Of a stretch of DNA of 53,357 nt, positions 11,453 through 45,403 are shown piece after piece. The stretch is from NCBI RefSeq assembly GCF_011745625.1, contig NW_027191500.1, positions 62,001 through 115,357 of the forward strand, in the 5' to 3' direction. The translations under genes were made by a program, and so were the position numbers. The stretch comes from Cladosporium halotolerans. Taxonomy: Eukaryota. Every line of letters starts with the position of its first letter. The first letter of the stretch is position 1. The notes beneath the pieces were generated by a model. That model worked only from the letters and a program-made list of their open reading frames with translations, had not been told where the DNA came from and searched no databases.

Positions 11453-12400
11453 CTATTCGCACAGTCTCAGCTCCAGCTGCTTCAGCTGACACCAGAAATC
11501 CCACGCCGCTCGGCTTTGCAGCGCAACGGTGGAAGTCAAAGCGAATACGATGCTGCCGACATCCGTAGGATGAATCCACCCCACATTACCATTCCAAGCG
11601 CTGACTGAAAACAGGATGAAATTCCAGGTTCCATGATATCCCACCGGCCTTGCGAGCACCCGCCACATGGAGAGATTTTCGCCTCGAGAATCTCGGCGGA
11701 TTGATTGCAGACTTGTCAAGAGTGCCATGATGGTATGGCCCGTTGCCGAGAAAATGGCGCGCTCGAAAAGCATGAGAGCAATCATGCTGCTCTTCTCGCC
11801 CTTCTCGACCGAAGCGTAGGTGACAAGAATGTTTTCGATGGTGCCGAATCCCAAGCCAGCTGCAGCGGCGTAGATGAGGTATTCATGCTCTTGCTTTGGT
11901 TGGGCACGCCAGACTGCGAAGCGAAGTGCAAAATATTTCAGTCCTTCCTCGACTGCACTTGCCCCAACATAAGACAGAATAACGAGGATCAAGGAGTATC
12001 GCGGGTTCCACGCCATCTGCCTTCGCACGTCGATTGCCTCCGTTGACAGCCCTTCAACAGTCACGCGTTGGAGTTCTCTCATGTATGATTGACTGTGAGA
12101 TCCGAAAAGTAGCTTGAAGAAGACGTGGCACAGCGACAACTGGATTGCACCAGCAATGGCGGGACCGAGAATGCTAGTCCCCAAATAAGTCCATGCTGTG
12201 ACTTCAGTATTACCGGAATCTTGGTGTGGCAATCTGCGAAGCTTCCATGCCGCAATGATCGTTGGCGATAGCAGCAGCGGAGTCAGAGCAGCAGTGGGGG
12301 GAGAGCAATATGCCAGGCCGGCGAAACTGGCAGGCAAGCCAACAGTGTAGAGTAGACGCATCGGCAAAGATGATCGAGGGGTCGGAGCAGGTGAAGTCAT
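11453..12400 (-). CDS. PrsW-family intramembrane glutamic/metalloprotease, intronless
   Basis: Multi-TM ORF with VEEGLK (EExxK), AAGLGFGTIENI (FxxxEN), a conserved H (TGH) and HGTWN (HxxxN/D), the four PrsW motifs. Confidence 0.88.
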   Translation of the reverse strand: MTSPAPTPRSSLPMRLLYTVGLPASFAGLAYCSPPTAALTPLLLSPTIIAAWKLRRLPHQDSGNTEVTAWTYLGTSILGPAIAGAIQLSLCHVFFKLLFGSHSQSYMRELQRVTVEGLSTEAIDVRRQMAWNPRYSLILVILSYVGASAVEEGLKYFALRFAVWRAQPKQEHEYLIYAAAAGLGFGTIENILVTYASVEKGEKSSMIALMLFERAIFSATGHTIMALLTSLQSIRRDSRGENLSMWRVLARPVGYHGTWNFILFSVSAWNGNVGWIHPTDVGSIVFALTSTVALQSRAAWDFWCQLKQLELRLCE

Positions 12401-13152
12401 ATTCAAGCAGTGCAAACGTGTTTGGCGGACTTCAAGTGGACTCAGCGTCAAATGATGAGTGACTTGCTCGTCCTCCTTGTCATGCGTGTTGTGTAGATTT
12501 CAAGAATGGCGAACAGATGGAACCGTCTAATAATGTCAAGAACAGGAGCATAGAGTCTCGACAGTCTCCTCGATCTAATCAGCGAGAGGTATGGGTCACA
12601 CGTCTCGGCGCCTAGTAGAATCGAAGCTCAGAGGATTGCTTGGGGATTTTTTTTAGCGAACGCGAAGTGCGGGTCGCATGCGTGCCAAAGTCCAGATCGC
12701 GAGACATTCTGAAAGCATTCACAAGCCATGCGAGGCAGGACTATTGTACTTTCGCCCTGCGTGGGAGAAGAATAGCTCAGACAACGGAGGCATGAGGAAA
12801 GCCAACAGTTAGATCGAATCGCGTGCGAATAGCGAATACTGCTGGAAGGCTCGCTCTCGACATACCTGGGTACTCTTTGGGGGTCTCGGAGATCATTTTC
12901 CATTCTACTGTCTCCATCTCTAATTGCCGGACTCAGTTTCTGTATCGATATGGTCTTAATTTGTCGAGAACAGAGAAAAGAAATGGCACCCATCGTAAAT
13001 GGGATGCAACAAACGCCGAGACAGAGCACCATTCGCCGAAGGCTGCGGGTCTGATCGTGGCGCTAGGCCGCATTAGGCACCCGAGGAACTTCTTTGAAGA
13101 TCAGCCATTAAATCTTTCAAGTCGCAAACCCCGCCATACAGAACCCCGTAAA

Positions 13153-14052: not shown

Positions 14053-14564
14053 TGGAGCGGCAATGCTACAAGTGTGCGACTCATTGATACCCTGCCTAGT
14101 GAAGGTTCTGTACCAATAAATCCAAGTAACTCGGCCCTGCCATTCTCAGTGAGCAAACACGGTCTATTGCCGGAGTTTTATAGATCACAGTGACGACATC
14201 CCCAAAGGTTCTTGCTAGTCGTCGTATGCTACTGAAACTGAGCCTAGCACTGCAGCGAAGCCACGTATTTGGTGTGGATCATCTGAATGATTGCCGTAGT
14301 GCAAGTGAAGTCATCCAAGTCATGCCAACGCTCGCGCCTTCCACGTGTGGTAAGATGGAGGGGCACCTGCCACACCTGTGTACAACTCACCCACGATAAC
14401 TGATGAGCAGGTTTCTTATCACCACCGACCTTTTCCGCACTCTTTCACGGACGGCAATACTCTTTCTTCTGTCATAGCCTTTGCGACAGGCTCACCAAGA
14501 CGCCACAGCGCCACCGGCGACCAAGCCAAGCAAGCTATACAAGAAGCAGATAGCCAGCATCCTC

Positions 14565-15833
14565 ATGGCTTCATTCCCGCGCCTCATCATTCTGCTGCAC
14601 CTTGTGGTGGCAGCATTGCTCACGATCGCACCACAAGCCAGCGCTCTTGGTCGTGAGTGAAGAATTTCCAAGGTCATTTGCTCCTAGTCTGACCCTTGGC
14701 TATAGTGTGTGCCAAAGCCTGCTACATGAAGTACGCTCACAGATTATCCGAATGCGATGGCTTCGTTCGCGGCATCGACTGCCTTTGCCAGAAGGGCGAG
14801 GTACCGGAGGTAGGTTTTATCGCGCCCTTCCACCGACCAATGTCTGACAGATTGACAGCAACTTGTTTCTCTCTGCCATGCCAGGTGCACCGACGGTGTC
14901 TGGGACGCTGTTTTGGATTCAAAACCATGCGCCTCCTCTGGAAATGGTGTCACTGAGCTGAAGTTAATCACCCACCTTGCCTCCACGAGCACCAACGCCC
15001 GCCAAGCCAGTCTCAGCCACGGCGTCAACGTTCAGGAGGTAATGAAGACGGAAAGATTCCATCAAGGCTATGCCACAGACCGAGAAGCGCGTCAGCAAAG
15101 GCGCGCGATCATCGCCAACAGCAGATTTGCTCGTCAGGTTGGGCACGCGGAGCTGAAGTCCTATCCCGTGACCCAGGGGGCATCACCAGTGTCTAAAGAC
15201 GACCCTCACCGCAAAGGCGGCGAACCAAATGATGGACCTCATTGGGCACTTAACTCCTGCGGGTTGCCAGGAGAGTCCTGCGCCGGCAGCAGCAGTGGTG
15301 GTGCCAAGAATAAACGTAGCCTCCAGTCGGAGAAGCCGGGAGACCTGAAAGCCACTCCTGTGATCAAGCCTGACCCAACACTGGTGAGGCGCGCAGCAAC
15401 GACTCGCCCGGCCTTCACCTGGAATCCAACGCTGTGCACTGCTCCTGGTATTCCTTGTGCTGGGGGCGCCGCCCTCAACGGTCTGGCCAAGTTTGCCGAA
15501 GACGCCAAAGTCGAGAGTACCACGCAAGATGACTCTCCCGAAGTGGTGAAGCGCGATCTGAGTTCCCGCAAAGCTACCCGCGATGACAAAGGATGGAGAC
15601 CAACGCTTTGCGGAGTGCCAGGCATCTCTTGTGCTGGATCCGGCAATGGTGATGGCACTCGCACGAAGCGAAGCACACCGCTCACCGACAGCCCCAACGC
15701 AGCGCCACTTCGTCCTGATGCTAGGTTGATGATCCAGGCGCATGAGCCGAAGGTACACAAGGCCGAGGCTGGCCATGGCAGTGCTTTCGAAGCCAGCGTC
15801 CACGCCGACTTTGAGGCTTCAGATGGCCAATAA
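14565..15833 (+). CDS. Secreted protein: signal peptide + CFEM-like 8-Cys domain + three Cys-Pro-Gly peptide repeats flanked by dibasic sites (3 exons)
   Basis: Exon 1 14565-14652 (MASFPRLIILLHLVVAALLTIAPQASA, signal peptide). Introns 14653-14705 and 14810-14858 (alternative donor at 14801) are phase-compatible. The spliced product contains CAKAC-x10-C-x8-CLC-x12-CHARC-x13-C and continues into the 14913-15833 ORF. Confidence 0.8.
15243..15638 (+). repeat. Three copies of the peptide motif W-x4-C-x2-P-G-x2-C-A-G at 58-59 codon spacing
   Basis: WALNSCGLPGESCAG (15243), WNPTLCTAPGIPCAG (15420), WRPTLCGVPGISCAG (15594). Confidence 0.9.
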
Positions 15834-16373
15834 GATGGCTGCGTTCAAGTCGAACTTGCCCACTCACCAACGAGAAGGGTGTCGCAGGGGACATTTACGA
15901 AGGGTTATGGCGTCGGAAATGTGGGAGGTTTATGATGGGTCTGAGTTCAACAAAGTGAATTCTGCTGCTCGACATGAGCAGCAAACCTACATATAGCTAC
16001 ATGGAATTACGTCCCTGATGGCGATGATAACGCTGTAGAGTCGAGTAGCTTTCTTTGATGCGTTCGGATTGCTTTCGGTTGGCACGTCCAATCGCCGCTG
16101 CTCCATCGCAACGGGGGCCTTCATTCGGCAAGCTGAGTTGGTCGAAGGCCTAGATTCTATTCCGCTGTCCTTCATTAACAGATCGACAGAGGCGGCCGAG
16201 CGCTTGCTGAGGGTAGGCACACAGCAGGGGGCCGCTGCGGACTCCTATGTGAAAGCTTGGACGGCTGTCAAGCTGGCTAAGCGACTCAGAGCGCACAGCC
16301 AGATTGCTGGCATCCTGGAGCTGAGAGCCGGTCAAACCGGCAGTTCGATTTTCAAGATTCTCTCGCCCTTCTC

Positions 16374-18182
16374 TCAGCCGATCCAGACGCCACCGCCACC
16401 TGAGCCGCGGTGCTTGTAGATATCATCACCAATCGACTCCTTCGCTACCCTCTCCTTCAACTTCTCAACCTCTTGCATCTCGGCCTCGAGCACGCCCACA
16501 CGCGCCTCGTCGAGCGTCTGCCCTTTCACGCCACCGTTGCCGCCAAACCAGCCGCGCCACTCGAACCATCCTGCGCTCTGCCCGCCTTCTCTAGCGCGCA
16601 GGTCGACATTCGTGTCGGCGAGCTTGAGGAGCATGGCTTCCCAATTCGACGCACCAGCGCGAAGGCAGGATTTGCACTGCTGCTTCTCTTCGGGCGTAAG
16701 GTAGTGCTGGCCTTTGCTGGCGTCCAAATTCGCCTCGGCAATTTGCGTCGCTTGCTTCGTCCAGCTGAGTCCTTCTGCGGAGTTGGGCGAGCTCGCGAAG
16801 AGAATCTCGCCGATGTACAGCATCAGCTCGCCTTCATCGCAGGTCGAGAGAGGAGTCTCGCGCACGAACGGTCTGTCGCCAGATGGTGGTTGAGAGGGGA
16901 AGACAGGGGCGCGGAAAAGGCTGGAGATCATGGAGACGGCGGCATCGAGGTCGGAGCCACCTTCGGATTGCTTGGATGGTGCAATGCGTCGGGCAGGATT
17001 AGGCGAGACAGGTGCGGAGCGTCGCGCACGGAGGACAGAGAGAAAGATTGGGAGGGCAAAGGCTACATCGCCATCGCGGGCGCGGTGTGTGGCTAGTTTC
17101 GTGACGGCATCGAGTATGTTCGGGGTTGCTGTTTCAGCGCCTGCCATCGCTGCTGCGTTGCTGGTCTGTCGATCCTTGAGGACCAACGTTTTCGGGTCAA
17201 GCACAGCATCCGGAGTTTGCAGAGCGGATTTCGCAATGTCGACGCCCCATTTGTACATTTCTTCGGCACTGTCGTTGAGACCCGTCTGCTCCAGCCATGC
17301 AGCGTATTTCCACGCAGCTTCAAGGCGCTGCTTGGTAGTGAAGCCTTTGCCGGTCAGCACGCGCATGTAGAAGCTCTCCGGCGTGTCGAACGCTCTAGTA
17401 GTGTTCTCTTCCAGAGGTGGAGTCCCCATGTAAGCTGCTGGCGGCCTCGGATCCGGGTTCGAGGGTCCGATCACGACCTCTTTCGGGAAAACAAGGCGTC
17501 GCGTAGTATCCAAGACCATGTCGTTCAAATGCTCAGCAGTCTCCGCACAGCCCATCAGCACCTCGAAGTACCCAGCTCGCCACTCCCAGCTCTTGTTAGA
17601 AATGTCCAGGCCTGCCTTCCCAACATCGGGTATCACGATGCCTTCCCCATCTGCTTGTTCCATCACATCTTTTCCATCGGTCGATCCCTCCAGTCGCAAA
17701 AGTGCTTTCATGTAGTCCGACCCGACCATCGCCCAGTCCACAAGGCCTATCCTGCTGCGGTCTTCTCTTGCGAATCTGGCTCCTCGCACATAGTTCTTCG
17801 TCCAGAAAGTCCATTCCGCAGGAGTAGGGTTGTTTCGCTCGTCAATCGCAATCTGTATGCCGAACCAGGAAATACCGGCGAGCGCTAGAAATGTCCAGCC
17901 GATCAGAGTCCATCGCGCCGCGAGCACGGTCTGGTCCTTGACATAGCGCTTGGTCTCCGTACTGAGCAGACGCAGCACTTGCTGATCGAGAGGCGACAAT
18001 CGACGCGCAAGGTGAGGCTGTGAGAGATATGGGAGCTGTGGACGAATCGTGTGCCTCGTGAGCACGAGGAGCTTGCTGTTCTGCGTGAATGCGCGCGGTC
18101 GTGGGAGGATTCCATTTGCGGTCGGTGATCGATGAGCTCGAATTGCTGGCAACCGGCCTCCTGCCGCTGCTCTTGACAACAT
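16374..18182 (-). CDS. Conserved fungal hypothetical protein, probably mitochondrial (presequence, one TM, TPR-like helical region)
   Basis: About 600-aa intronless ORF. Arg/Ser/Leu-rich N-terminus lacking acidic residues; hydrophobic segment WTLIGWTFLALAGISWFGI; motif FPKEVVIGPSNPDPRP. Confidence 0.8.
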   Translation of the reverse strand: MLSRAAAGGRLPAIRAHRSPTANGILPRPRAFTQNSKLLVLTRHTIRPQLPYLSQPHLARRLSPLDQQVLRLLSTETKRYVKDQTVLAARWTLIGWTFLALAGISWFGIQIAIDERNNPTPAEWTFWTKNYVRGARFAREDRSRIGLVDWAMVGSDYMKALLRLEGSTDGKDVMEQADGEGIVIPDVGKAGLDISNKSWEWRAGYFEVLMGCAETAEHLNDMVLDTTRRLVFPKEVVIGPSNPDPRPPAAYMGTPPLEENTTRAFDTPESFYMRVLTGKGFTTKQRLEAAWKYAAWLEQTGLNDSAEEMYKWGVDIAKSALQTPDAVLDPKTLVLKDRQTSNAAAMAGAETATPNILDAVTKLATHRARDGDVAFALPIFLSVLRARRSAPVSPNPARRIAPSKQSEGGSDLDAAVSMISSLFRAPVFPSQPPSGDRPFVRETPLSTCDEGELMLYIGEILFASSPNSAEGLSWTKQATQIAEANLDASKGQHYLTPEEKQQCKSCLRAGASNWEAMLLKLADTNVDLRAREGGQSAGWFEWRGWFGGNGGVKGQTLDEARVGVLEAEMQEVEKLKERVAKESIGDDIYKHRGSGGGGVWIG

Positions 18183-18405
18183 CGTTGGAGGTTGCAATAG
18201 CTGTGCTTCTCGCTAATGACTGCCTTCGTCCCGCTGCTATAGGACTTGATGATGCGCGGCTGGTGTCCCCGCGCTCCGCAACTTGCCCTTCCCTTTTGGG
18301 ACTAGCTTCAATACATCGTGCTGTGAGTTATGCTACATGTTGCTGCCGACTCATTGCGCAAGGACATGATTTTAGGAAGACGAAGTTTGAAGTGGCATAT
18401 CAAGA

Positions 18406-19478: not shown

Positions 19479-22400
19479 ATGAGAGCACGGCGCTCGTGCG
19501 GTCATGCGCTACCAAGCCTGTTACTTTTCCAGCTTCTCGTGCTTTTCAATTTCTGGGGTGTCATAGCAAAAGTACACTTACCTCAAAACGTCGGGGAGCA
19601 ACCGGAACATGTATTGGCACGGCACGAGAGCATCCCTCCAGCCTCGTCATCCGTATCAGAGATCCAGTGTACTTCTACAGAACTCCAAGGCCATGGCTGC
19701 CAGGGTGCTCAAAGGTGCCCTCCGTCGCGGAAACTGGCTCACCACTCGGAGCATGACGATCCAAGAGCTTTACTGAAGACGAACGGAACCCTTTTCCCAC
19801 GCCAGGATAATGACGATGACAAAAGAGACTGGCAAGCATGGGTGAGCAAAGGGAAAGATCTTCTTGACATGCTTACATGTGGTACTGGTCCCCAAAGTAA
19901 GTGGACTTCCTTCGACGATTTGAAGACATGGGGTTGGTCACGAAAGGAAAAGAAAGTCGACTACCCAGGATTCCTCCCCAAAGACGTGCCAAAATACCTG
20001 GGGGATCCAGTCTTAGCGGACGAGCTTTGGGAAGTTGTCGACGAGCACACGAAGACTACGATCAATGACGATACGCTGTATTATGCAACCGATGCGATGT
20101 ATGGAAACTTTTACAGCTCTTCACTTATCATATCGGACACCAATTATGGCCCCGAAACCGAGGGCCCATCCCAAAATCCGCCGGTGGATGGCGAGAGGTA
20201 CCCGTTCCCAAAACTTGGTCGACTCAGCGATGTCCTTTTTCTAGAATTTCAAGAACGCATGGAAGTTCTCGAGAAGCCGACAAACAAACTCAAAGGACAC
20301 CTCAGAGCAGGCATCGTCAACCGGCATACCAAAACCATCGTCAAAAAGGCCCTCAATGATGACGGCAAAATATGGCCCAGTTGGCCAGGCCGCGACTTCA
20401 CACCGGACACAGAAGGATTTTCTGCTCTCTTGGCGAGTCCTAACGGGCGAGGTATGTTGATTGATACATCTCCTTTAGTTGAAATGATCTCACGCTGATA
20501 TTGTAGGGGTTGCGTGGTTCCTCGGAACCCACGTTGAACAGCTGGGCCACAAAACCATATCCAATATACGAGTACTTGGCCAGGGTGCCAAGCTTCACAT
20601 CCTGTTCGTCTTTGAGGATGTCGCCAGATCGCAGGATGATAAGCAGTCCACAAGCGAAACATTGGAGCAAACCCCCGAAGCAAATCCTACCAGCTTCGCG
20701 CACGCGCACGGTAACAGCCTTGCAGAGCATCCTGCAATTTTTATACGCAGCGACACCAAGCCTTCACCAACACAGTCTCCAACTGTTGTTGAATCTGGAG
20801 TGCCACGAGATTGGGAGCAATGGGTTTCCAAAGGTAAAGCTTACCTCGAGATGCTGAACTGTGGCACTGGCGAGCAGAGTATATGGAAATCGTACGACAA
20901 CTTGGAGGAGAATGGCTGGGAGCAAGCGCGGGTGCGACACCCGGTTTATATATACGACACGTCGGCCCTCAAGAGAGTCATGAGGCTTCTCAAAGTATCT
21001 TCGGAACCGCAAGACCAATGGGTTGTGTCCAGTAAGCATCTCAAAAAGACGACTAAGGATGGCAAGGTATACTATCCGACTGGAGCGAAGTACGAAAACA
21101 AATACAACATGGAGCTGATAACGGCGGAATCGAACTTCGGACCTCAGAACGAAGGCCCGAAGCAGAAAGAACCTCCTGTGACGGGTGATCCAAACCCCTT
21201 CCCTCCATTGAAACAGCAGAGCGACGTGATATACTTGGAGTTCACGCGGCTGATGAAGCTTAACAAAAAGCCTATTGACAAACTTAAGGGCTTCTTTCGG
21301 CCTTATATTGTCAACTCGGAAACTCGAAGTATTGTAGCGAAGGCATTGGGAATTCCTGTGGATCAATTTAGCATGATTCCAGAGTGGCCCGGCCACGACT
21401 TCGAGCCGGGTTCAGACGAGTTTGCGGCATTGCTCGCAAGCCCCAACGGGAGAGGCGTCGCCTGGTTTCTCGCTACACACAAGGATTTGGGACATAAGAC
21501 CATATCCAGCATCAAGGTGTTCAAGGATTTTGGACTTTGTATCCTGTTTGTCTTTGAAGACGTCAGAGGTGGACTCGACCAACAACAGCCTTCAAGCTCG
21601 GGATCTAGTGAGCTTATACGGAGACATTCAGCATTCGAGCTGAAGCGTCGAGCACTCTCTGATAGCCAGCGTAAAAAGTTCGTCACAAAAGGCAGAGATC
21701 TTCTGGCAGCTCTCGAATCTGAGTCTCATTGTTTCCCCGAGGCAACCTTCACAAACTATCAGGACCTGGACGACTGGGGCTGGACGGTTTTTATAGAGCG
21801 CGAAGGACTTGGCGCTATCAAGGAGTCTGCAACCCAGGTATACGACCTTTTAGGGGCTTCAATGGAGCCAGCGGAAAACATCATTGTTACTGATGACCAT
21901 GATGAGGCGAGGGAGAAAGGCTCAACCACCTATCATCCTACCGGAGCGTTGTACCTGAATCTTTACAATCCAAATCTAATAACGGCTATTTCGAATGATG
22001 GTCCAGCATCAGCAGGGAGACGGAAGGACCCTCCGGTTACGGGATCACCAGCAATGCCTTTCCCGATCTTGTCACACTCGTCGGACGTCATGTTTCTCGA
22101 ATTCCAAAGGACCATGGCAGAGATGAATCAACCAATGACGAAGCTGAAAGGCATCTGGCGAAATAATGTGATCAACGAAGAAACGGAGGAACTTGCGATT
22201 AGCATATCAAGCTCAACTGATGATATTTTCGGTATTCCTCGGTGGCCTGGCGTCGACATAGCCGCCAACAGCGACGAGCTGGCGGCTTTGGTTGCGGCAC
22301 CGAACGGTCTAGCAGTCGCATACCTCATGCTCCAGCACCGTCGACAATTGGGCTGGAAGACCGTCACTTCGGCCAAAATCTGGTACGAGAACTACAAATT

Positions 22401-25317
22401 CCACGTGCTATACTTGATCGGAGATGTTTCGAACACGCCGGACGAGTCTCTTGAGGCTGGCTCTGAACAGGCCGGTCGTCAAGACCACGGATCGGCTTCC
22501 TCTACACGACGTGTAGGTGGGCATTTCAGACCTATCAAACGTGCCAGGCTGCATTCAGATTACGATGACTATGCAGTGAAAGGAAAGGCTCTACTCTTGG
22601 CCCTCGAGTCCAGAACAGAGTGCGCAGCTCAAAGCGAGTGGATCAAAGACGAAGCGCTCTCTACTTGGGGTTGGCGTAGCATTCGAAATGCCAAAGTGGG
22701 CCCTGCATCTTCCGACATGGCCATGAAGCAGGTCTTCGAATATGTTGGGGCGTCTATGGAAGATGGGACGAACCACCAAGCGTACACTTCCCATTTGGAT
22801 GCCGAAGTCATTGATGGAACCACATACCGCAGGACGGATGCCGAGTTCAATAACAGATACAATCCAGCTATGATCATAGCGGAGACCATCTATGGGGTGG
22901 AGTACCAAGGGCAAACTCAAAAACCACCCGTGACTGGCAAGCCCGATCCATTTCCGAAGTTGAGATTCTGGTCGGACGTTACCTTTTTGGAGTATCAGAA
23001 CTTCATGAAATCTTCTAGCCAGTCTTTGGAATCCTTGAAGGCCGTTTGGCATTCGGCCGTCATCAACGAGGAGACTCAAGACCTCGCTGCAAGCTTCTTC
23101 GGAGTGGAGGAATGGACTGACATATCCGGCTGGCCCGGCAAAGACTTCACTTCAGGGTCAAAAGAGCTCGACGCACTGGTTGGTTCTGCTAATGGTAAAA
23201 GCGTGGCCTTTCTGTTATTGGAACATCGTAAGCAACTTGGGAATAAGGTCATCAACAAAGCCCGTGTCTGGAAGAACGAGACCCTGCACGTCCTGTACAC
23301 AATCGAAGACGCTCACACATGTGTCGATGATGATTCTAACAACTCTAAGGCACATGATCGGAGGCTTATCCGTCGAGTAGGCGAGACCGGTGCTACTTCA
23401 GTTGCGAAAGCTAAGAATGCTGGTTTGTTCTTCGTCTCGGCGCAAGATTCGCCTACCGATATCCTGGAGAGCTGTTTGAGGATCAGGCAAAGCAGTTTCG
23501 TAAGAATAAAGCAACTCAGGGACTCTGGCTGGACCCAGGTCGGCTCTGATCGCCAAGAAGCTGTTGAAGAAGAAAAGGATCGTGCCACCTTCGATTCCTG
23601 GCTGGATCTCAACTTGGATCTAAGAGCAGGCAGAAATCACAGGATATCATACCAACATCTTCGAAAGACCACGGGCAGCGACGTGAAAGCCTATCACCCA
23701 TCAGGTGCCTACTACAACAATCTCTTCACTGAAGGAGGTATCGTTGCTCTGGACAACGCAAGCCCGTGGGCGACAGGTCGCAGTATGAATCCGCAAGTGG
23801 ACGGAAACCGCAATCCATTCCCGCCGTTGAAGCAATGGAGTGACGGAGCATTCCTCGTGTATCAGGACATCTGCAGGGGCGACGCGAAAGCAATGAAGTC
23901 GCTCAGAGGTGTTCTTAGACACACCGTCACGAACACTCCAACAAGAGCAGCTCTCCAGGAGTACTTAGGCAAACAAGGCGAACTCGAGGCCAATATACCG
24001 AAACCATGGCCAGGCACGTTGTACACGTTGAAGGATGAGGGTTTCGTCATCGCACTTGGCACACCCAGCGGCAAGGGTGTGGCATACTTGCTCGCCACGC
24101 ATCGCGAGAGTCTGGGCTGGAAAGAGATCTACCAAATCCGCATTTTCAGTGCGGACTGGAGCTCGCCTTACAACATCCTGTACTACATCAGAGACCACAG
24201 GACCAACCCAGCACGCCTCCGTTCTCGAGCGCTCCTTGCGAGCGGTGGCTCCGGTTCATCTGCCTCTCCGTCTTGCGACACCCACCAGCTCGTGCGCAGG
24301 AACGTCTCCGTCACCTCATCCAGCCTTGCCAAAGATTCACATTCGCCCGGTACCAGCAACGACGCAGAATACAACCGCGCCCTCGAACGCGGCGCCCGCC
24401 TCCTCTGCGAACTCTACGCCAGCCCCAGCCAAGTCGACCAAAGCTCCTGGACAGACCCTTCCTCCCTCGCCACCCACGGCTGGGTCGAAACAACTAAATC
24501 TCCCACGGACACCAACTTCCAGCCCTTCAGCGCCATCGGCGCCGCCCTCAAGGATCTGAAAATCTCCACTGCGCCCGAAGACAACATCCTGCAAGCCTTC
24601 GTCCACGCAAAAGAATCCACACACGCGGGCCACACCTACCCTGCCACGAACGCCAGCTACAGCAACGTCTTCAACGCCAAAGCAGGCGCCATAATCGCCG
24701 ACTCCAACACGCCGCCCAGGAACCCAGCAATTAACAACCCCTTCCCCCTTTCCCAATACTCCGACGTCGTCTTCCTCGCCTGTCTAGCCGCCGCCGGCCC
24801 CTCAGCCAAAAACCTCAGATACATCTTCCGCGGCCCCGTCGCGGACCCCAGCACCCTCGCCATCGCTCAGCGCGCGCTAGCTAACCGCGGCAAAGACCTC
24901 GCCGCTTGGCCGGGCGAGAAAATCGGCATGGCGGAGGCGGACGCGCAGGCGCTTCTGGGCTCGCCGAGTGTGTTGGGAGTCGGCTATTTGCTGGCGCAGC
25001 ATAAGGATGTGCTTCGAGTGAAGGTTGTTGAGAGTGTTACGGTTTTTGAGGCGGATGGGGCGGTGGGGTTGTGTTTTTGGATTGGTGATGTTGCGGACGG
25101 AGCGGAGGGTGGGCTGCTGCCGACTGGCTTGATGGGGGAGTTGGCGGCGGCCGCGGAGGAGCAGCATGATGCTGTGCGTGTGAAACGCGCTGAAGTTGGT
25201 GTGGTTGGCAATTCGACTGGTTCGATGGTGCCGGAGGTCTACTCGACGTGGACGGCGGTTGTTAGAAAGCGTTTCAGTAACGCGGCGGGCAAGGCTTGGT
25301 CTGCTTTTCGGTTGTGA
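19479..25317 (+). CDS. Large secreted polyprotein (1927 aa) with six tandem homologous ~250-aa domains of unknown function (2 exons)
   Basis: Signal peptide LLLFQLLVLFNFWGVIA. Intron 20452-20506 (GTATGT...GCTGAT...TAG) joins ORF 19479-20498 in frame to ORF 20662-25317 and restores ALLASPNGR-GVAWFL, identical to the motif in the next repeat. Confidence 0.9.
19827..25092 (+). repeat. Six divergent intragenic domain repeats
   Basis: Approximate spans 19827-20622, 20809-21564, 21655-22428, 22555-23310, 23398-24195 and 24361-25092. Each has GW, Y-x-x-T/S-x-A-x-Y/F-x-N, PFP..SD.x(F/Y)L, WPG, an AL..(S/T/A)P(N/S)G-like segment and H..(.)L.xK motifs. Confidence 0.92.
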
Positions 25318-33957: not shown

Positions 33958-36900
33958 TCAAGTGTAGTAATGCCAATCGTTCTCGCCGCTATCGGGCGTT
34001 TCCTCCAACGTGACCTTTTTGCTGCTGGCGCTTTGGCCCGATGTGTTCTCGCCACGCTCGCCTATTTTGCTCTTCCCGGCAGGTGCATCGGCGGTGTCCA
34101 CGATCTCAATCCCTCCTGATCCCGTCTTCTCTCGCTTCGTTTTCCCGTCGTCGACGGGAGGTGTGGTCGCGGCAGGCGCCGCTGGGACCTGCTGCTCCAG
34201 AGGCGGCTGAGAAGCAATGGTGGAAGATTCGCCCTGTGGGTTTTCGAGCTGGCTCTCTGCAGACTTGATCTCCGCCTCTTCGAACTGCTTGTTCTGGCGC
34301 TCGTGGGGTCGCATGGGTAGCTCAGGCGCTCGTTTTCGTCTCGCGGGTAGAGGAGGCGGCGGCGCTTTCTTTGTGGGACTGGCGTCCTGGTCGACGGCCG
34401 CAGTAAAGTCAATGAGATCGTTGTCGTGAGTCCTGAGATCGCGTGTCTTTGCGGCCACGTCGTCATGTTCCTCGCCGAAGTTCTCCCTCCACGGACCGAA
34501 TTCGTCTTCCTCGACACTGTGAGCGCTGGTGCCATCGCTTGCACGCTTTGCAGCGCTGCTGGTACCCGATTTGATGCTTGCGTTTGTCTCATCTTTCGAC
34601 GTATCCGTCCGAGCTTGCTCCGCAGCTGGTGGGCGGGTAGGCAGCACGGGTTTCCTCTTCACGCTCCCACCCGCGAAAGCGCTCCCGCCCCAGAGACTAG
34701 TCTTCGGGCCGGGTAGAGGCTGGCCGATCGGTGGTAGCGGCTGTCCTCTTCCTACAGGCTCTTGCGGTCCAGGTTTGTGGGAGCTTGGTGGTCTGAAAAT
34801 TGGCTGTCCTTGCTTGCGGTTTGCGACAGCGTTAAGCGTCCATTGCCTGGCTGCAGATGTCGCGGCCGCGGTAGCGGCGAAGAGCGCCTTGCCGCGGGGT
34901 TGACTTGTCTGAGAAGACTGCGTGGATGAGGCAGTGTCCGTTCGTGGGAGAGACTCGTAGCTGGGTGTTCTCGGTAGAGGGAGAGCGGTGTCCGAGACGT
35001 TTGGGTGAAGGCTCCCACTGGACTTGCTCCCAGCGCTTCCTCTACGCTCGGCCTCAAGCTCGTTCGGCTCTATACTCAGCAGTGCTGGGTCATCGTCGTC
35101 GCCGCCCTCTGCGACCGCTGTCGAAGCGCTCATGCCTGGGCTGCGCGGCGCAGTGTTGTCGTCTTTCCGCGCAGAGCGATCTTTCACTTCCCGAACTGCA
35201 TCCACTGCATCGCGCTTCGCTGCAGGTTGCGGCGATCGCCCTATCCAGCGTTTCGCTGGCGGTGGGGACTCGAGCCCTCTTACTGCATCAATGTTGGAGC
35301 CATCAATGGCTACGCTTGGCGTGGAAGGGAGTGGGGTGGTAAATGAAGGAGATCGGAGGCCTTTCGAGATATTGGTTGCCTTCTCTGCTGCTGCTTGAGC
35401 GGATTGTGAGGGTAATGCTGTAGCGGAACGGTGCTTGAGACTCTGGATTTGTTCGCCAGATTGATCCACCGTGACAGGTGTTTGAGCGCCGGAGGTTGTC
35501 GCAGACCCACCGCCAGAATTTGGTAGATTCGGCATCGACATCGTCTTTTCGTTTCTCGCGCTCAGCATGTCTTTCTCAGATGGCTCCGCCTGCCCCGTGC
35601 CCTGTTCTTCCGTCGGTTCAGGGTCTGGTTGCCAAATTCCGCCTCTGTATGTCTGCTTGTGCGTATCAAAGAATGGCACGTCATCCCAATTCGGCTTGAC
35701 CAGCGTCTCTCCGAATACCTCGCGGATTCTGTTTTCGATCTGGCGCAAGATGAAGTTGTACGTAATCTGGCGTGAGCTTACGATGGGCTCTACCTTGATC
35801 TCCATGTCCGGCATGTTCTCGAAGCAGAACCAGAGTCTGTTGCTTGGAGGTGGTTTCACGCGTACGAGCATGCGGCCCTGTAATCGCTGGAGACTTCCTG
35901 CCAGGACAAGGTCGACGGTGCGGACCTTGAAGCGCTGACCCAGATCCAATTTAGCCACGGCAGCAATGACTACTTTGATACCACCGGTGTACTTGACGTC
36001 CATAGATAGTATCATGTCGCCAGAAATATGTATGTCCTTGAGCCGTAGGTTCGAGAGAATGGGTCCGGCATCACCCAAGTCAATGCTCTGAACGCTCACG
36101 TAAGAGATGAAGGCTGGTTTCGCAACTCTTGAGATTTTCTTCTCAATTTTCTCGCGGACTAGATCTTCAAGAAACGGCGTGCGGTGTAAGGCAAGGAAAA
36201 TACGGTTTACGAGGGCGTTGAGAGCTCGGGTCTCTGGTGTCAAAGAATTCGAATGGATGCTCGACTGCAGCTTGATCGAGCTCGCAGAGTCCAAAGGTTG
36301 AGGCACAGGAGATTCCGGCTGTGCTGCGACAAGAGCATGGTAGAAGTCCTCCTTCTCGGAGCAGTTGGAGCTGAAGAGGTAGAATGGCTTCGGCTGCGAG
36401 TGCGTTCCTTGGGTCACGTCGCCACTTGCTGAAGAGGCATGCGGCTTGAGTACGATCGCCGTGCGCTTGATGAAGAGATCCGGCTCCAGCATATTCTCAT
36501 CGTCGCCATCGCCGTCTGTCAGCGAAACGGAATGGTGAGCCATACTTATGACATGCCGGACCTCCAGCTCAGCTGGCGAATCATATAACATGAGATGGCC
36601 GTGTCGGACTACGATATGGAACATGCTACCCACTGGGGCGCTCGGTTTACCTCGAGCTTGTGTGCCTGTCACAGGTTCGTCGGTGTCCGCCAGCGGATTC
36701 TTGTTCAGGGCCGTCCGGCTTCGGTCGAACACCGAGCGATACATGCTCTGGTACACTGACATCGACTCTTGACCGGGCGCTTCCGCTTGTCCCTCGCCAT
36801 TGCCTTGTGACGCGGCATTTGCCCTAGCATTCAAGGTGCTCAAAGCCGACTGGAAGTTGTAGGATCGCAGAACTGCAAACGTGGCATTCGCGGCCCCATC

Positions 36901-37104
36901 AGAAGAGAAATCGGCCTTGTGCGCGAGCTTGTCCTTTTCGGTATCCACTCCATCTTCAGCTGCCCTCTCTTTAACACTCGTTCCACCTTCATTCTGGGCA
37001 TGCGGTAGTGTAAACCAGGCGGTTATGGCAATCGTGATGAGCAGGAGCGGGAGGAAGGTGAGTCCGCCGAGGAGGTACGCGGATACGAGGGCTTTGAGGC
37101 TCAT
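33958..37104 (-). CDS. NVJ2: PH-domain + SMP-domain lipid-transfer protein (Nvj2/TEX2 family)
   Basis: N-terminal TM (AYLLGGLTFLPLL), PH domain (VVRHGHLMLYD...EKEDFYHAL), SMP domain (ALNALVNRIFL...KPPPSNRLWFCF...ETLVKPNWDDVPF), long disordered tail. Confidence 0.88.
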   Translation of the reverse strand: MSLKALVSAYLLGGLTFLPLLLITIAITAWFTLPHAQNEGGTSVKERAAEDGVDTEKDKLAHKADFSSDGAANATFAVLRSYNFQSALSTLNARANAASQGNGEGQAEAPGQESMSVYQSMYRSVFDRSRTALNKNPLADTDEPVTGTQARGKPSAPVGSMFHIVVRHGHLMLYDSPAELEVRHVISMAHHSVSLTDGDGDDENMLEPDLFIKRTAIVLKPHASSASGDVTQGTHSQPKPFYLFSSNCSEKEDFYHALVAAQPESPVPQPLDSASSIKLQSSIHSNSLTPETRALNALVNRIFLALHRTPFLEDLVREKIEKKISRVAKPAFISYVSVQSIDLGDAGPILSNLRLKDIHISGDMILSMDVKYTGGIKVVIAAVAKLDLGQRFKVRTVDLVLAGSLQRLQGRMLVRVKPPPSNRLWFCFENMPDMEIKVEPIVSSRQITYNFILRQIENRIREVFGETLVKPNWDDVPFFDTHKQTYRGGIWQPDPEPTEEQGTGQAEPSEKDMLSARNEKTMSMPNLPNSGGGSATTSGAQTPVTVDQSGEQIQSLKHRSATALPSQSAQAAAEKATNISKGLRSPSFTTPLPSTPSVAIDGSNIDAVRGLESPPPAKRWIGRSPQPAAKRDAVDAVREVKDRSARKDDNTAPRSPGMSASTAVAEGGDDDDPALLSIEPNELEAERRGSAGSKSSGSLHPNVSDTALPLPRTPSYESLPRTDTASSTQSSQTSQPRGKALFAATAAATSAARQWTLNAVANRKQGQPIFRPPSSHKPGPQEPVGRGQPLPPIGQPLPGPKTSLWGGSAFAGGSVKRKPVLPTRPPAAEQARTDTSKDETNASIKSGTSSAAKRASDGTSAHSVEEDEFGPWRENFGEEHDDVAAKTRDLRTHDNDLIDFTAAVDQDASPTKKAPPPPLPARRKRAPELPMRPHERQNKQFEEAEIKSAESQLENPQGESSTIASQPPLEQQVPAAPAATTPPVDDGKTKREKTGSGGIEIVDTADAPAGKSKIGERGENTSGQSASSKKVTLEETPDSGENDWHYYT

Positions 37105-38222
37105 TGTCCCGCATGTCGCTTGGCCACGCGCATGACACTCCGAAGAACAATGGTGTCAAGGCCCTTTAAGAGAAAAAGATGATTGGTGTCCTAATGCGTT
37201 TCGAGTTAAGCACCCAAGACCAGATCAGCCGAAGTCAACAACTGCACGTCATTGCTTGGCGCAGATCCGGAGATGGTGGAGACTCTGCCCATCCATTTTA
37301 TGTACATCTCGCAGCAGTAGCAGAAACACAGCTGGCCATGCATTCACCCGGGTACTGTTTCGCCATAAGAGGGTGAGCATAAAGCGTATCTCTAAATATA
37401 TCTGAGGATGCTCACAGCTGAAAGGGCTCCGCGTCTTCTCTCCTCTCCGCTCAACAATGTCAGCCAGACGTGTCGAACGGTCATTCAAGGGCAGAATGGA
37501 TTGGAACGTACATGGAGGGTGTTCGCCAGCCTCGTCCCAACGCATGTAGCCCTTATGGAGCTGTTGGTCTGCCTGTCAAATGCTGTTGCTTAGATTCACA
37601 GCGTGATGCCAATGTGAGCTCTATCACTGCGATGCTACGGATACGCAAGCGAACAGTACAGTCGGGAACCGCATTCTTTGATGGCTCGCAATTGTGACCT
37701 ATACACGGCTCGAATCCTTTACGTGCCTTTGTCTGACCTGCGTCCTGGCATTATCCAGTCCTACGACCAGGCTCCACAGCGAAAAGCGGCCCCTTCATCA
37801 TTATGATTATTGCACCCAAGGGCAAGTCACCATTAGACACATCTACAACACCCCAGCCGATAACACACTTCCAGCATTCTAGCTGCTTCGTCATGGCTGG
37901 GATTGGCTTCCCCCTGTAGATGACGAGACATGGTAAAGCTTCCAGCGCACGTCTTGCCAGGCGAGAGAGCCATGTTTCGTAACACCTAGCAGACAGACGA
38001 CAGGCGAATTTTAGAACCACCAGCCGAATAGAAAAGAAGGGAAAGGATTTCCCTTTACGTATGGAATCTGGCCCCACGACTCTGTGCTTGCCGCATTCTC
38101 CGCATCCTCCAGAGCTTTGACTTTGCCTGCGCAGATTTTGTGGGCGCCCCATCGAAGTCAAGACAAGCAAGTCTACATGGTTCAAAGAACGATGGTGCTA
38201 GTCAGGTCGTCGATAAATTCAG

Positions 38223-40823: not shown

Positions 40824-42355
40824 ATGTCAGCCTCGGCTGCGGCGTTTCCTGGCAGCGCGCCGCCGTTGCGCGACAAGAGCATTAACACTCCCCTCGATTT
40901 CAAGCTCGTCAAGGAGCTGGACGACGGCAACTGCGTCGTCAGCGTCTCCTTCGTAGCCGCAAGCAAGGCTTGCGGAAACAACCTTGAGCACCTCAAGTCT
41001 GCTATGGCGTGAGTGTGTCTCTTCAACGAAATCAAGCTCCTTGCTAACTGTCGCAGTGAGCACTTCAGCCAGCGCCTACAGACTCCTGTTCATCAAGTGG
41101 AGTTGAGCATCAACGCTTTTGAGAACAACATCATGGCTACTCCGGCCAAGGAGTGCGTCCTCGAAACTGCCGGCAACTCCGGCACGCTTCCAGCCAGCGA
41201 TGTCATCTGCGATGAAGATGTGAATGAGAGTGCCTCGAAGAAGGCGCCGAAGAAGGTTCCCCGTCCTCCGAACGCCTTCATCATCTACAGAAAGGAGTGG
41301 CACCCAATCATGGTCGCAAAGAACCCCGGAGCTCATAACAACACGATCTGTGAGTCTGCGCTCCCCTCTAATGTCTTCCTGAATTTGACTGACTTCGTGT
41401 AGCGATGATCATTGGCAACCAGTGGAGAAACGAAAGCCAAGAGGTGAAGGACAAGTACCAGCAGAAGGCCGCTGAGGCCAAGTACAATCACTCAATCGCA
41501 AACCCGGGCTATCAATACCAGCCTCGCAAGCCTTCCGAGAAGAAGAAGCGCATGACGAAGAACAAGCTGGCCAAACTCGCGGCAAATTCTTCCAACGCCC
41601 CGGAGGCTGATAACGGCGAGTTCAGTGATGTCCTGGACCTCCCGGACCCTCTGCTCACTTATGATTCCACAAAGAATCAAGTCTCTTTCTTTGCCGGGCA
41701 CGGAACCGCTGATCAGCTTACTGAGGAGCTAAACGGCTTCAACAACTACATGTGGCCTGACCAACAGCCGGCGAACAACCCGACCCCGGCGACCAACCCG
41801 ACCATGGCGACCAACCCGACCATGGCGACCAACGTGACCCCGGCTACCAACCTGAACCCGGCGTTCCTGACCACTCAGGCTACTGGCCAGCTCCCAGTCA
41901 TTCCGGGATTTAACACTACGGCCGCTCAGCCTGCCGGGCAGTTGCCCCTCAACCCAGCTTCTGCGCTCCCGTTCGTTCAGCCTGCTCCTCCGCAGCCTGC
42001 TCTTTCGCTGCCCATTCTTCCGGCTTCTATGTTCCCAGCTGCCCAGTCTACCGAGGTAGTCGCTGACCAATTTGGCGTCGACAATGTTCCGTACTACCCG
42101 CTCGGCTCCACTGCTTCGAACATGGCTGCTCACAACTCGTACAACTTCTTTGAACTGGATTTCATTGAGGAGCTCCTGGCGTACGAGAATAACGGAAAGG
42201 TTGGCAACCCGAAAGGTCACTTCGGTGAAGCCCAAAGCCTTGGTGCGACGCCGCAAAAGCTTCCTCCCCCCAGCGAAGGGTTCCGCCAGACTTCTCTCCA
42301 TGGTGGGCTTTCCGAGTTTGGCATGAATGCCTTCTTCGACTTCGACAACTATTAG
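40824..42355 (+). CDS. MAT1-2-1: Mating-type HMG-box protein MAT1-2-1 (3 exons, 476 aa)
   Basis: KKVPRPPNAFIIYRKEWHP...NPGAHNNTIS|MIIGNQWRNE...KYQQKA...H...NPGYQYQPRKPSEKKKR. Intron 41350-41402 splits the conserved Ser codon of the HMG box; first intron 41009-41056; adjacent to APN2. Confidence 0.96.
41777..41866 (+). repeat. 18-bp in-frame minisatellite (5 units) inside MAT1-2-1
   Basis: aacccgaccccggcgacc / aacccgaccatggcgacc x2 / aacgtgaccccggctacc / aacctgaacccggcgttc, encoding NPTPAT-NPTMAT-NPTMAT-NVTPAT-NLNPAF. Confidence 0.9.
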
Positions 42356-42998: not shown

Positions 42999-44975
42999 TC
43001 ACCCATCCTCCTTCCTGCCGTTCTGCCAGTCACTGCACCATATGAAAGTCCCACACCTCCACTCTGTGCCCTTCTCTTTCTGCCCGCTGGGCCCGAGCGG
43101 CCGCGCGCACATCCAGAAGCTCCGCCCTTGGTTGCTGCCCTTCTTCTTCGTCTGCATTGACTTGCAGGGCTCGGCGTGGTCTTCGCACAGGGGCGCGACG
43201 GGGCGGGAGAAGAGCGCAGACCAGGATTGCGAGGTCGCAGAGCGCGCTTCGAGGTTGTCGAAGGATTGTGTGGGCGAGGGCGGATCGGTGCGTACTGTGC
43301 GGGCAGAGGTTGGGGTTGCTGATGTTTGACTCGGGATGGGCGTACTTGGCTCATTAATGTTTGTGGTTCCGGAGGGAGTGGTGGTTGTGCTATCCTGGAG
43401 CAGCGTCGATGTGTTCGAGCGTGACCTTTCGCCTGCCCCGGATGTCTCTTGATGATCCGCAGAGCTGTGTCCGTTTTCTTGCGCAGTAGCGGTAGCGGTT
43501 TTGCTCGCGCTAGTAGTTCTGGGCTGGAAGAAACCTCGAAGGCTCTGTTGCCCTTTCCCCGTCGAACCGTTCGATGTTGCGTTCCCCTCGGACTTCTGCC
43601 GCTTTGCAGCCACTGGCTTGGAGGATGTTGAAGCTTTTCGCTTCGTGTCCGGGCTAGCCGCAGCTGTGTCGATCGTCGAGGGCGGAGCTTTGGTAGCTAC
43701 TGCAGGCTCTTCCGTCTTTTGCGCTTCGTTTGGTGTTCCTACGGGACTGGCATTGCTAGCTGCTGGCTTTGGCTTCGGCGCCGCAAACATCGACTTTATG
43801 CTTCTGCGCTTGTCGAATTCTTGCAGACGCTTTCCAGAAAACGCAGGGATGTCTTGTACTTTCCATTCACGCTTGCGATCCCCATCCACGAACGTTCCGG
43901 GTGGGCTCATGATGTCGAGGAGTTTCACATCGCCGTTCTCAGTACTCACAAGATCATGGAAGTCGACGAAGACAGGGCAATGATCGCTACCGAGTAAGCC
44001 TTCTTGGATGTTTGCATCTTTTATCCAGGACCGCATAGACTCAGCTACAAGGACAAAGTCGATGCGAGAGCCAAAGTTGCCCGGCCGGGCATTTATCTTC
44101 TGCTCCCAGTGTGTGTACATGCCCGCCCTGTCCGGGTGGAAGCCCCTTGTAGTGTCCCAAAGAACCCCTCGTTCCCTGCCTTCGTCTCTTTCTCCAACAA
44201 CCTCGCCACCGACGAGCAGCTGGTTAAAGATCCTGCGGTTGGGAGTAGAGATATAGTCTTCGTGGCTGATGCCATGTTTCCTCATGTCGTCCGCCGATGA
44301 GGCTGTATCCAGCTCATGTCGAGAGACGTTCAGGTCGCCAACAAGCACGACTCGCTTGCCCCTCCGGGCCAAGTTGCGGATTCGGCAGTCAAGAGCACAG
44401 ACGAAACCATATCGAAAGTCGTCGCGCAGGCCGTTGCTGTTCGCTGGGGAGTAGACACCCAACAGGACGAACGCTGGGAACTCAAGGATGAGACAGCGGC
44501 CTTCGGCATCAAGAAGGGCAGCGTCGACGCCGAGCTCGGCGATCTGGAATTCGCTAGGATATCCACCAATGCACTGGTCGTCTGGCAGCTCGCGATAAGG
44601 AGTGCCGGAAGGCGAAGGCAACACCCCGAGCAATCCTTCTTCCGCCCGAATGGGAGCGCAGGTTGCGTTCCTTGTGTAGATCCCAACACCGGAGTAGCCT
44701 TTCTTGTGCTTCGGCAAGCTAAAGTAGCAGTCCCATCCATCCAGTATCACCATATCATCTCGCAAGTCTTTGCGCTGGATCTTCAACTCTTGCATGACGA
44801 TGATGTCGCTCTCCAGAATATCGAACATAGCCGGAAAGCTGCGAGCAGCGTTCCATGGTGGATAGGAGAAAGGGTTTCGAATACCGTTGACATTCCTGGA
44901 AGTAGATCAATCAGCATATTATCCTTCAGACAGCCCGGTAAGGCGCGTTCCATCTTACCATGTAGTGAGCCTCAT
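42999..44975 (-). CDS. APN2: AP endonuclease 2 / DNA lyase (2 exons)
   Basis: Intron 44958-44896 gives MRLTTWNVNGIRNPF. Also QELK, GYSGV, GDLNV, SRIDF and GSDHCPV; PIP box QQSLRGFF; C-terminal GRF zinc finger (C..H.EPC...GRSFWMC...C..F.W). Confidence 0.96.
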
Positions 44976-45223: not shown

Positions 45224-45403
45224 TTCTCCAGCTTCCAAACGCTCAGGCGCTGGAAGCCAAGGGATTGGCCGTATTGGGAAGTTGCACAACACATCCGTGA
45301 ATCAGGATTCTAGGACAAGGAATAGCTTCCGGTCTCACTTGTAGAACTTCACAAGCTCACTTGAAAGTATGCGGCTGCGACCAGGTGGTTGAACGAATTA
45401 GCT

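Follow-up and report, generated by a model that had tools for sequence, protein, structure and literature searches.

Kex2-processed repeat proteins (KEPs) have been delimited in silico by the combination of a signal peptide with three or more internal repeats that are separated by KR or RR (or KK) pairs (Le Marquer et al., 2019; PMC6339444). Precursors of the alpha-factor type carry identical or near-identical repeats of 9–14 residues, with X-A or X-P dipeptides directly before and KR or RR after each of them (PMC10569646). The Kex2 protease favours an aliphatic residue at position P4 (PMC8528282), and the consensus of the CFEM domain comprises eight Cys, a leading Pro, an Asp before C4, and a spacing of x15–16 before C8 (PMC4530338). 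Here, we describe a gene from Cladosporium halotolerans which is encoded on the plus strand of a stretch of 53,357 nt (contig NW_027191500.1, positions 62,001–115,357, assembly GCF_011745625.1). This whole stretch is referred to as the window. The gene occupies positions 14565–15833 of the window and codes for a protein with a Cys-rich head, which is followed by three units that each carry a small Cys-bounded loop. An earlier reading, made from the letters of the window without database searches (the sequence-only reading), had drawn attention to it.

Judged from its sequence, the gene is best assigned to the KEPs, among which its Cys-rich head is unusual. A KEP which would release different loop peptides of 39–71 residues is the best reading of the locus, and we give it about an even chance of being correct. 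The KEP class is proposed because all three in silico features listed by Le Marquer et al. (PMC6339444) are found. The protein has a single hydrophobic segment according to hydropathy, as expected for a signal peptide in a protein devoid of transmembrane domains; it has three internal repeats; and KR or RR occurs in both of its inter-loop spacers.

Architecture and proposed processing

The proposed precursor would consist of a signal peptide, the Cys-rich domain, an invariant R-x-[QK]-R-R motif, the loop units (three in the window protein and 2–5 in its relatives, with about 50–60 residues each), and an acidic tail. Each unit is built around a loop of the type [KP]-W-x-P-x2-C-x2-[PFR]-G-x2-C. 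The protein would enter the endoplasmic reticulum, and each C-x6-C pair would close a small disulfide loop. A Kex2-type protease in the Golgi may then cut after RR146, KR217, RR242, KR296, and KR335. The expected products are the Cys-rich domain, three loop peptides (before trimming by Kex1), and the tail. When the protein is cut in silico at every KR or RR, the fragments are aa 28–146 (Cys-rich), 147–217 (unit 1), 218–242 (devoid of a loop), 243–296 (unit 2), 297–335 (unit 3), and 336–388 (tail), so that the three loop fragments comprise 71, 54, and 39 residues. We infer that these non-identical, disulfide-looped peptides act as extracellular signals or effectors.

A small family with conserved loop cores

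A word-indexed protein search returned only two close relatives, P0001 (93% identical) and P0002 (73% identical), both of which are exon 3 sequences that were called as prokaryote-style open reading frames (ORFs) in assembled read sets. When 1.84 billion representatives were searched with hmmsearch, 10 proteins matched at E ≤ 1e-3, and nine of these (P0002–P0010) share the architecture of the window protein. The remaining one (P0011, 863 aa, E = 8e-4) is a long repeat protein without loops; it was considered a chance match and dropped. A second profile search returned 8 proteins, all from read sets or metagenomes, none of them with a Pfam domain and with "hypothetical protein" as the sole name. 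When exon 3 and eight relatives were compared to Pfam, no family was assigned, and the only rows were chance-level matches to the Sina zinc finger (E 0.09–0.21). The ESM Atlas gave no usable match with exon 3, and six loop motifs of the family did not occur in a full-text literature search. As far as sequence comparison goes, the family is small and carries neither a name nor an annotation in the databases searched. Metagenome contigs were scanned with an alignment of the sub-family, and this revealed five loci (L001–L005).

An alignment of 11 sequences retains the last Cys of the N-terminal domain, the invariant R-x-[QK]-R-R, the C-x2-[PFR]-G-x2-C loops with the preceding [KP]-W-x-P, and an acidic motif at the C-terminus. 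Beyond its Cys-rich head, the window protein has six Cys, which form three C-x6-C pairs, one per unit. The cores of the units have the pattern W-x4-C-x2-P-G-x2-C-A-G and are encoded at 15243–15287 (unit 1, aa 193–207), 15420–15464 (unit 2, aa 252–266), and 15594–15638 (unit 3, aa 310–324), all on the plus strand. They start at aa 193, 252, and 310, so that they are spaced by 59 and 58 residues. The sequence-only reading had claimed three evenly spaced repeat peptides, and the exact sequences which it quoted are present at these three positions. When the residues of the mature protein were shuffled 5000 times, no shuffle reached three C-x2-P-G-x2-C motifs (mean 0.003).

The DNA of the cores of units 2 and 3 is only 73% identical over 44 nt, and we therefore consider the repeats to be old duplications rather than recent copies. 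The three cores differ from each other, and they are kept position by position across species: unit 1 is similar to unit 1 of other species, and the same applies to the last unit. Inner or last units have also been duplicated in a lineage-specific manner (units 3–5 of P0004, units 2–3 of P0006, and units 1–3 of P0007).

The cores are far better conserved than the remainder of the protein. Between the window protein and P0002, 44 of the 45 core residues are identical, compared to 180 of 261 (69%) elsewhere. Strain X1, one of four sequencing runs that matched the stretch, shows about 97% nucleotide identity. Among the 39 of its 41 differences which are listed, 30 are in the coding sequence (11 synonymous and 19 non-synonymous), and only one non-synonymous change falls inside the three cores. 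These comparisons show that selective constraint acts on the loop cores of this fast-evolving gene. In run X4, the region 15265–15632 is represented by several short contigs of differing similarity, and one of these diverges across 67 nt at 15719–15787. This points to more than one allele or strain in the sample, or to repeats that were collapsed.

The repeat region has a high content of A, G, S, and P; it is of low complexity and probably unstructured. AlphaFold2, when run on exon 3 with the alignment of 11 sequences, gave a mean predicted local distance difference test (pLDDT) score of 38.8, and the helix of the R-Q-Q-R-R motif alone reaches about 62. We take this model to indicate the absence of a confident fold and nothing beyond that; it would fit a precursor and proves nothing. 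The C-terminal tail (15672–15830, plus strand; aa 336–388) has an acidic end and aligns with an acidic D-D-[DE]-G-x-x-[VI]-x-[IV]-E motif at the C-terminus of distant relatives.

Dibasic sites and the question of cleavage

The window protein contains the dibasic pairs RR146, RK183, KR217, RR242, KR296, RK302, and KR335. All pairs which the sequence-only reading had listed are present, but two of them are not kept among the close relatives, the HRK before unit 1 being HHK in P0001 and VVKR being VTER in P0002. The best-conserved pair is RR146, which was absent from that list. It is part of R-Q-Q-R-R (15090–15104, plus strand; aa 142–146), the sole dibasic site that is invariant in 11 of 11 aligned members of the family, and is located in a predicted helix. 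We propose this motif as the putative Kex2 cut between the Cys-rich domain and the repeat region.

Four further candidate Kex2 sites are found on the plus strand. K216-R217 (15312–15317) follows unit 1 and K334-R335 (15666–15671) follows unit 3; these two are kept in P0001 and P0002. So is R241-R242 (15387–15392), which has Leu at P4 (L-V-R-R) and represents the best Kex2 context in the protein. K295-R296 (15549–15554) has Val at P4 (V-V-K-R) and is not conserved, the corresponding residues being T-E-R in P0002.

Across the family, KR or RR is present in 29 of 37 inter-loop spacers. The mean after shuffling is 11.6, and none of 2000 shuffles reached 29; the spacers were drawn from related sequences, and the counts are hence not independent. 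At 20 of the 36 KR/RR sites concerned, X-A or X-P follows (mostly E-A-Q-P), which is a signature of Kex2 plus Ste13 processing. This enrichment, together with the KR-E-A-x-P of the relatives, argues for the general idea of a Kex2-type precursor of several peptides, as it had been put forward in the sequence-only reading.

Several observations weigh against release of the peptides. The sites in the clade of the window protein are poorer than those of the relatives: they are not followed by E-A-x-P, and an aliphatic residue is found at P4 in only 2 of the 5 KR/RR sites (RR242 and KR296), of which KR296 is lost in P0002. KR or RR is missing from 8 of the 37 inter-loop spacers, and some units would therefore remain joined. 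The location of RR146 in the only predicted helix may limit access of the protease. Units that are non-identical and positionally orthologous would also fit a multi-loop protein that is never cut. Finally, an additional Cys between loops 1 and 2 of some relatives (see below) could tie the N-terminal domain to the repeat region by a disulfide bond.

The main rival of the KEP reading is a secreted or wall-associated protein which stays whole. Its Cys-rich, CFEM-like head would be the active part and might bind a ligand, haem, or a surface; the remainder would be a flexible stalk with small disulfide loops, and the dibasic pairs would be incidental or structural. Such a protein would account for units that differ from each other while each is kept by position, for the poor Kex2 contexts in the clade of the window and the spacers without a site, and for the conservation of the tail and of the helix around R-x-[QK]-R-R. 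The sub-threshold CFEM match of exon 2 and the even Cys count that results in relatives only if the N-terminal domain pairs with the repeat region, both described below, point in the same direction. On the other hand, KR and RR are strongly enriched exactly between the loops, and KR-E-A-x-P is recurrent in relatives. A stalk that is rich in Ser/Thr is not found; the C-terminus is hydrophilic and has no hydrophobic end of the glycosylphosphatidylinositol type (hydropathy); an N-glycosylation sequon does not occur in the protein; and the CFEM features are not kept in the orthologues. We consider an uncut protein a less likely but serious alternative, and retain the KEP reading as the better one.

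Gene model

The coding sequence is composed of 14565–14652, 14706–14809, and 14859–15833 (plus strand), which results in 1167 nt with one open frame and 388 aa. When splice sites were enumerated over 14200–16200, the only stop-free model was that with three exons and two introns. Exon 1 (14565–14652, 88 nt) carries the ATG at 14565 and the signal sequence. It is followed by intron 1 (14653–14705, 53 nt, GTGAGT…TAG, phase 1; donor at 14653) and by exon 2 (14706–14809, 104 nt), which codes for the first five Cys of the Cys-rich domain. Intron 2 (14810–14858, 49 nt, GTAGGT…CAG, phase 0) contains a CTGAC motif that resembles a branch point. Exon 3 (14859–15833, 975 nt, including the TAA stop codon at 15831–15833) encodes the last three Cys of that domain, a linker, the three loop units, and the tail. 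All these elements are on the plus strand.

Introns are present at matching positions and phases (1 and 0), with lengths of 52–54 nt, in all four related loci which have a 5′ end (L001, L002, L003, and L005; L004 begins within exon 2). The phase 1 intron directly follows the signal sequence, and the phase 0 intron divides the Cys-rich domain at its middle. The layout with two introns is the only consistent open model in these four loci, and the proteins concerned are only about 25% identical to that of the window. The four runs that matched the stretch (X1–X4) are genomic contigs of relatives with 95–99% identity, in which the introns are present and exon joints do not occur. Strains X1–X3 have deletions of 2 and 4 nt in exon 2, which sum up to a net 6 nt and are in frame, while intron 1 of strain X1, a near-identical genomic contig, has two separate deletions of 1 nt. 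Splicing of both introns gains indirect support because the same positions and phases recur in orthologues and because the indels in exon 2 preserve the frame, compared to the non-triplet indels in intron 1. The claim of a three-exon gene in the sequence-only reading holds: there is a single open spliced frame with canonical splice signals, and the introns recur in 4 of 4 related loci, splicing being deduced from this comparison.

The run search listed no RNA run containing the stretch. This, and the lack of an annotated protein in the databases searched, would fit a chance ORF or a pseudogene rather than a functional gene. We regard that as highly improbable: the frame is intact, intron positions and motifs are kept in orthologues down to about 25% identity, and conservation of the cores is far above the background. 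From its pattern of conservation, the locus is a real three-exon gene which is fast-evolving and codes for a predicted secreted protein. Two antisense ORFs at 15183–15818 and 15239–15844 (both on the minus strand) were considered as coding and rejected; the plus frame matches all five related loci, but neither of these ORFs matches any of them. The comparison covered both strands of the segment from 5 to 26 kb of the window, with every ORF that had a minimum length of 80 aa, and matches to the related loci were confined to the plus frame of exon 3 and to the adjoining upstream region with CMS1.

Signal sequence and Cys-rich head

The segment aa 7–21 forms a hydrophobic core with a Kyte-Doolittle mean of 2.96, the next highest segment of the protein having 1.28 (a hydropathy test only). 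The signal peptide which had been claimed is consistent with this strongly hydrophobic segment, the sole one in the protein. A-S-A at aa 25–27 is the likely signal peptidase site (−3/−1 rule, assigned by eye). The first 27–29 residues are predicted to form a classical secretion signal, and the protein is probably secreted.

The subsequent domain (14708–14930, plus strand; aa 31–88) has Cys at positions 31, 35, 46, 55, 57, 70, 74, and 88, corresponding to C-x3-C-x10-C-x8-C-x-C-x12-C-x3-C-x13-C. It is interrupted by intron 2. The sequence-only reading had proposed a CFEM-like domain with eight Cys. The eight Cys are indeed present, but the CFEM label is weak. Exon 2 alone matched the Pfam CFEM profile with E = 0.0042 and 17.5 bits (17.1 bits in a repeat run), which is below the cut-off of 22, and the match covers positions 8–36 of the 66 profile positions; the part in exon 3 alone gave no match to this profile. 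A Cys-only CFEM pattern fits up to C7, and 6 of 7 Cys-Cys spacings are within published ranges. The protein departs from the strict consensus (PMC4530338) in three respects: P-x-C is lacking, the Asp is not at its required place, and C7 and C8 are separated by 13 residues instead of 15–16. In three orthologues (L001, L002, and L005), only five of the eight Cys of the N-terminal domain are retained, and none of the three matched Pfam CFEM with exon 2. Comparison of exon 2 with the PDB sequences gave 0 matches at E ≤ 10. We thus describe the head as distantly CFEM-like and go no further than that on the basis of these profile and pattern comparisons.

In addition to the five Cys in the N-terminal domain, the same three orthologues have one extra Cys between loop units 1 and 2. 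With this residue, an even number of Cys results only when a disulfide bond connects the head to the repeat region.

Gene neighbourhood and the relation to pheromone precursors

When 25 ORFs of the window were compared to Pfam, the gene order around the locus was found to be a PrsW-type protease (minus strand), CMS1 (plus), the gene described here (plus), an ORF of 612 aa (minus), and Vma22. Beyond Vma22 are, among others, genes for a DEAD-box helicase, an F-box protein, a DUF3433 protein, and a protein with PH and MMM1/SMP domains (33958–37155, minus strand).

CMS1 is directly upstream in L002, L003, and L005, so that these loci are considered positional orthologues. CMS1 shows 66–82% identity, compared to only about 25% for the gene itself, which is therefore far faster-evolving than its neighbour. 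Judged from these contigs, the family is located directly downstream of CMS1 in Cladosporium-like Dothideomycetes. In L002 and L005, a gene for a Gal80-like oxidoreductase precedes CMS1, and on the other side, at L002:5550–8120 and L005:5693–8872, the family gene directly abuts an SMP-domain gene, which is 65% identical to that at 33958–37155 of the window. About 18 kb of the window (16.0–33.9 kb), with about 7 of the ORFs scanned against Pfam, are therefore absent from these two loci and have been inserted or rearranged in comparison with them.

An HMG-box ORF that resembles MAT1-2-1 is encoded at 41393–42355 (plus strand), 25.6 kb from the stop codon of the gene, which is close to the distance of about 24 kb from the mating-type (MAT) locus stated in the sequence-only reading. 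Genes for an APN2-like endonuclease (42999–44906, minus strand) and for APC5 (45365–46600, plus strand) adjoin the HMG-box ORF, an arrangement that is typical of a MAT1-2 idiomorph with its flank. The SMP-domain gene of the window is only about 4 kb from the HMG-box gene. If synteny around MAT holds, the family gene would be much closer to MAT in the fungi represented by L002 and L005.

The loop and this neighbourhood raise the question of whether, in this lineage, the gene might code for an alpha-type (Ste2-activating) pheromone precursor of atypical build, in which a Cys-rich pro-domain is combined with long spacers. We consider this improbable. In a fuller form, which we find equally hard to credit, a MAT-proximal gene would specify a pro-domain that is cut at the invariant RR and several different C-x2-P-G-x2-C peptides that are sensed by a Ste2-type receptor. 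The C-x6-C spacing and the PG turn of the loops are as in mature repeats of Leotiomycetes, for example WCGRPGQPC (PMC10569646). The turn dipeptide GQ or PG, by which such repeats are recognised in that source, is represented by PG in all three loops. The signal peptide, the variation in repeat number, the spacers of the Kex2 plus Ste13 type in relatives, and the fast evolution would also be in line with a pheromone precursor, as would the distance of 25.6 kb from the HMG-box gene and, in relatives, the position next to the SMP-domain gene. The genome paper of Cladosporium sphaerospermum predicted no pheromone genes (PMC4886633), and a pheromone precursor of the present type would explain this lack.

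The divergent pheromone precursor, which the sequence-only reading had offered as one of two options, is not borne out as stated. Units bounded by KR or RR have 39–71 rather than 9–14 residues. The processing sites are about 10–30 residues away from the cores, and the KR-E-A-x-P of the relatives is likewise at a distance. The sites of the window protein are followed by AIIA, SLQS, AATT, DLSS, and STPL, which are not Ste13 dipeptides directly before the repeats. The three cores are not the same, and they show orthology by position instead of homogenisation. Pheromone precursors have nothing equivalent to the conserved N-terminal domain, helix, and tail of the family. Alpha-type genes with two conserved Cys have been reported for 13 non-Pleosporales Dothideomycetes and for Cladosporium fulvum (PMC6339444); these would represent a separate canonical gene or, conceivably, the present family. 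Neither a pheromone-response element of the yeast type nor an HMG-box site was found in any of 3 upstream regions, which is a weak test. On pheromone genes of Dothideomycetes, Cladosporium, or Capnodiales, literature searches yielded no more than the general statements given here. The resemblance to a mating pheromone precursor is only superficial, and we do not take the pheromone-like loop and the location beside MAT as evidence of a pheromone.

The neighbouring genes also bear on the possibility that the gene, as a KEP-like precursor with repeated cores, gives rise to a heavily modified ribosomal peptide (RiPP) of the dikaritin or ustiloxin type. Genes for UstYa/DUF3328, a tyrosinase, or a methyltransferase are not found among the 25 ORFs of the window that were scanned, the neighbours being housekeeping genes, and the flanks of L002 and L005 (CMS1, the Gal80-like oxidoreductase, and the SMP-domain gene) hold no tailoring genes either. 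Moreover, known cores are far shorter than the conserved units of the family. We therefore see very little room for a RiPP precursor.

Some features of the neighbourhood are recorded for completeness. The gene for the PrsW-type intramembrane metalloprotease (11453–12499, minus strand) is located 2 kb upstream; none is found in the loci of the relatives, and it is probably unrelated. The ORF of 612 aa (16374–18212, minus strand) and one of 1609 aa (20488–25317, plus strand) have no Pfam family; the former is convergent with the gene described here, and L002 and L005 lack an equivalent. Upstream of the gene, a block at 14332–14378 (around …GGGGC.CCTGCC…) is kept in L002 and L005, while other intergenic DNA aligns poorly. 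From this conservation, the block is a candidate for a shared regulatory element.

Significance and comparison with described systems

Cladosporium-like moulds belong to the most common fungi in the air and on plant surfaces. To our knowledge, almost nothing is known about their sexual and chemical communication. The gene adds a conserved and fast-evolving family, for which our searches returned no annotation, to the Kex2-processed peptide precursors. Its layout is unusual, as a Cys-rich head is followed by non-identical loop peptides which each keep their position from species to species. Should the peptides be released, they would be candidates for extracellular signals or effectors that are open to direct synthesis and testing. 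The fixed place beside CMS1 in the wider MAT neighbourhood, together with the pheromone-like loop, offers a handle on whether an alpha-type pheromone exists in fungi that are supposedly asexual.

With CFEM proteins (Pfam PF05730), the window protein shares that it is fungal, predicted to be secreted, and has eight Cys, with exon 2 aligning to profile positions 8–36. It differs by a score under the Pfam cut-off, by the absence of the leading Pro, the misplaced Asp, and the last spacing of 13, and by orthologues with only five Cys and no CFEM match (0 of 3). Effectors with a Kex2-processed pro-domain (K2PP; PMC8528282) are similar in having a conserved dibasic site between the N-terminal part and the remainder of a secreted fungal protein. 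Their pro-domains are typically without secondary structure, whereas in the present family the N-terminal part is Cys-rich and probably folded, and it is the C-terminal part that has a low predicted order.

Precursors of the ppg1 type (PMC10569646) resemble the family as secreted proteins with repeated C-x6-C loops and a PG turn, with Kex2/Ste13-type spacers (in relatives of the window protein), and with rapid divergence. They differ in that their repeats have 9–14 residues, compared to units of 39–71 residues here, and that processing sites do not abut the cores in the present family. In addition, the cores of the family differ within one protein, which also has an extra Cys-rich domain as well as a helix and a tail that are both conserved.

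The closest match is to the KEPs (PMC6339444; survey by Umemura, 2020, PMC7329392), with which the family shares the predicted signal peptide, at least three repeats with KR or RR between them, and a repeat number that varies between species. Ste13-type X-A or X-P after KR is an additional likeness and is found in the relatives of the window protein. The term CFEM has 0 occurrences in the main text of PMC6339444 and PMC7329392. The family stands apart from the KEPs in that not every spacer has a site, that a folded-looking Cys-rich domain precedes the repeats of the window protein, and that the units are long (about 50–60 residues), non-identical, and positionally orthologous, each of them with a C-x6-C loop.

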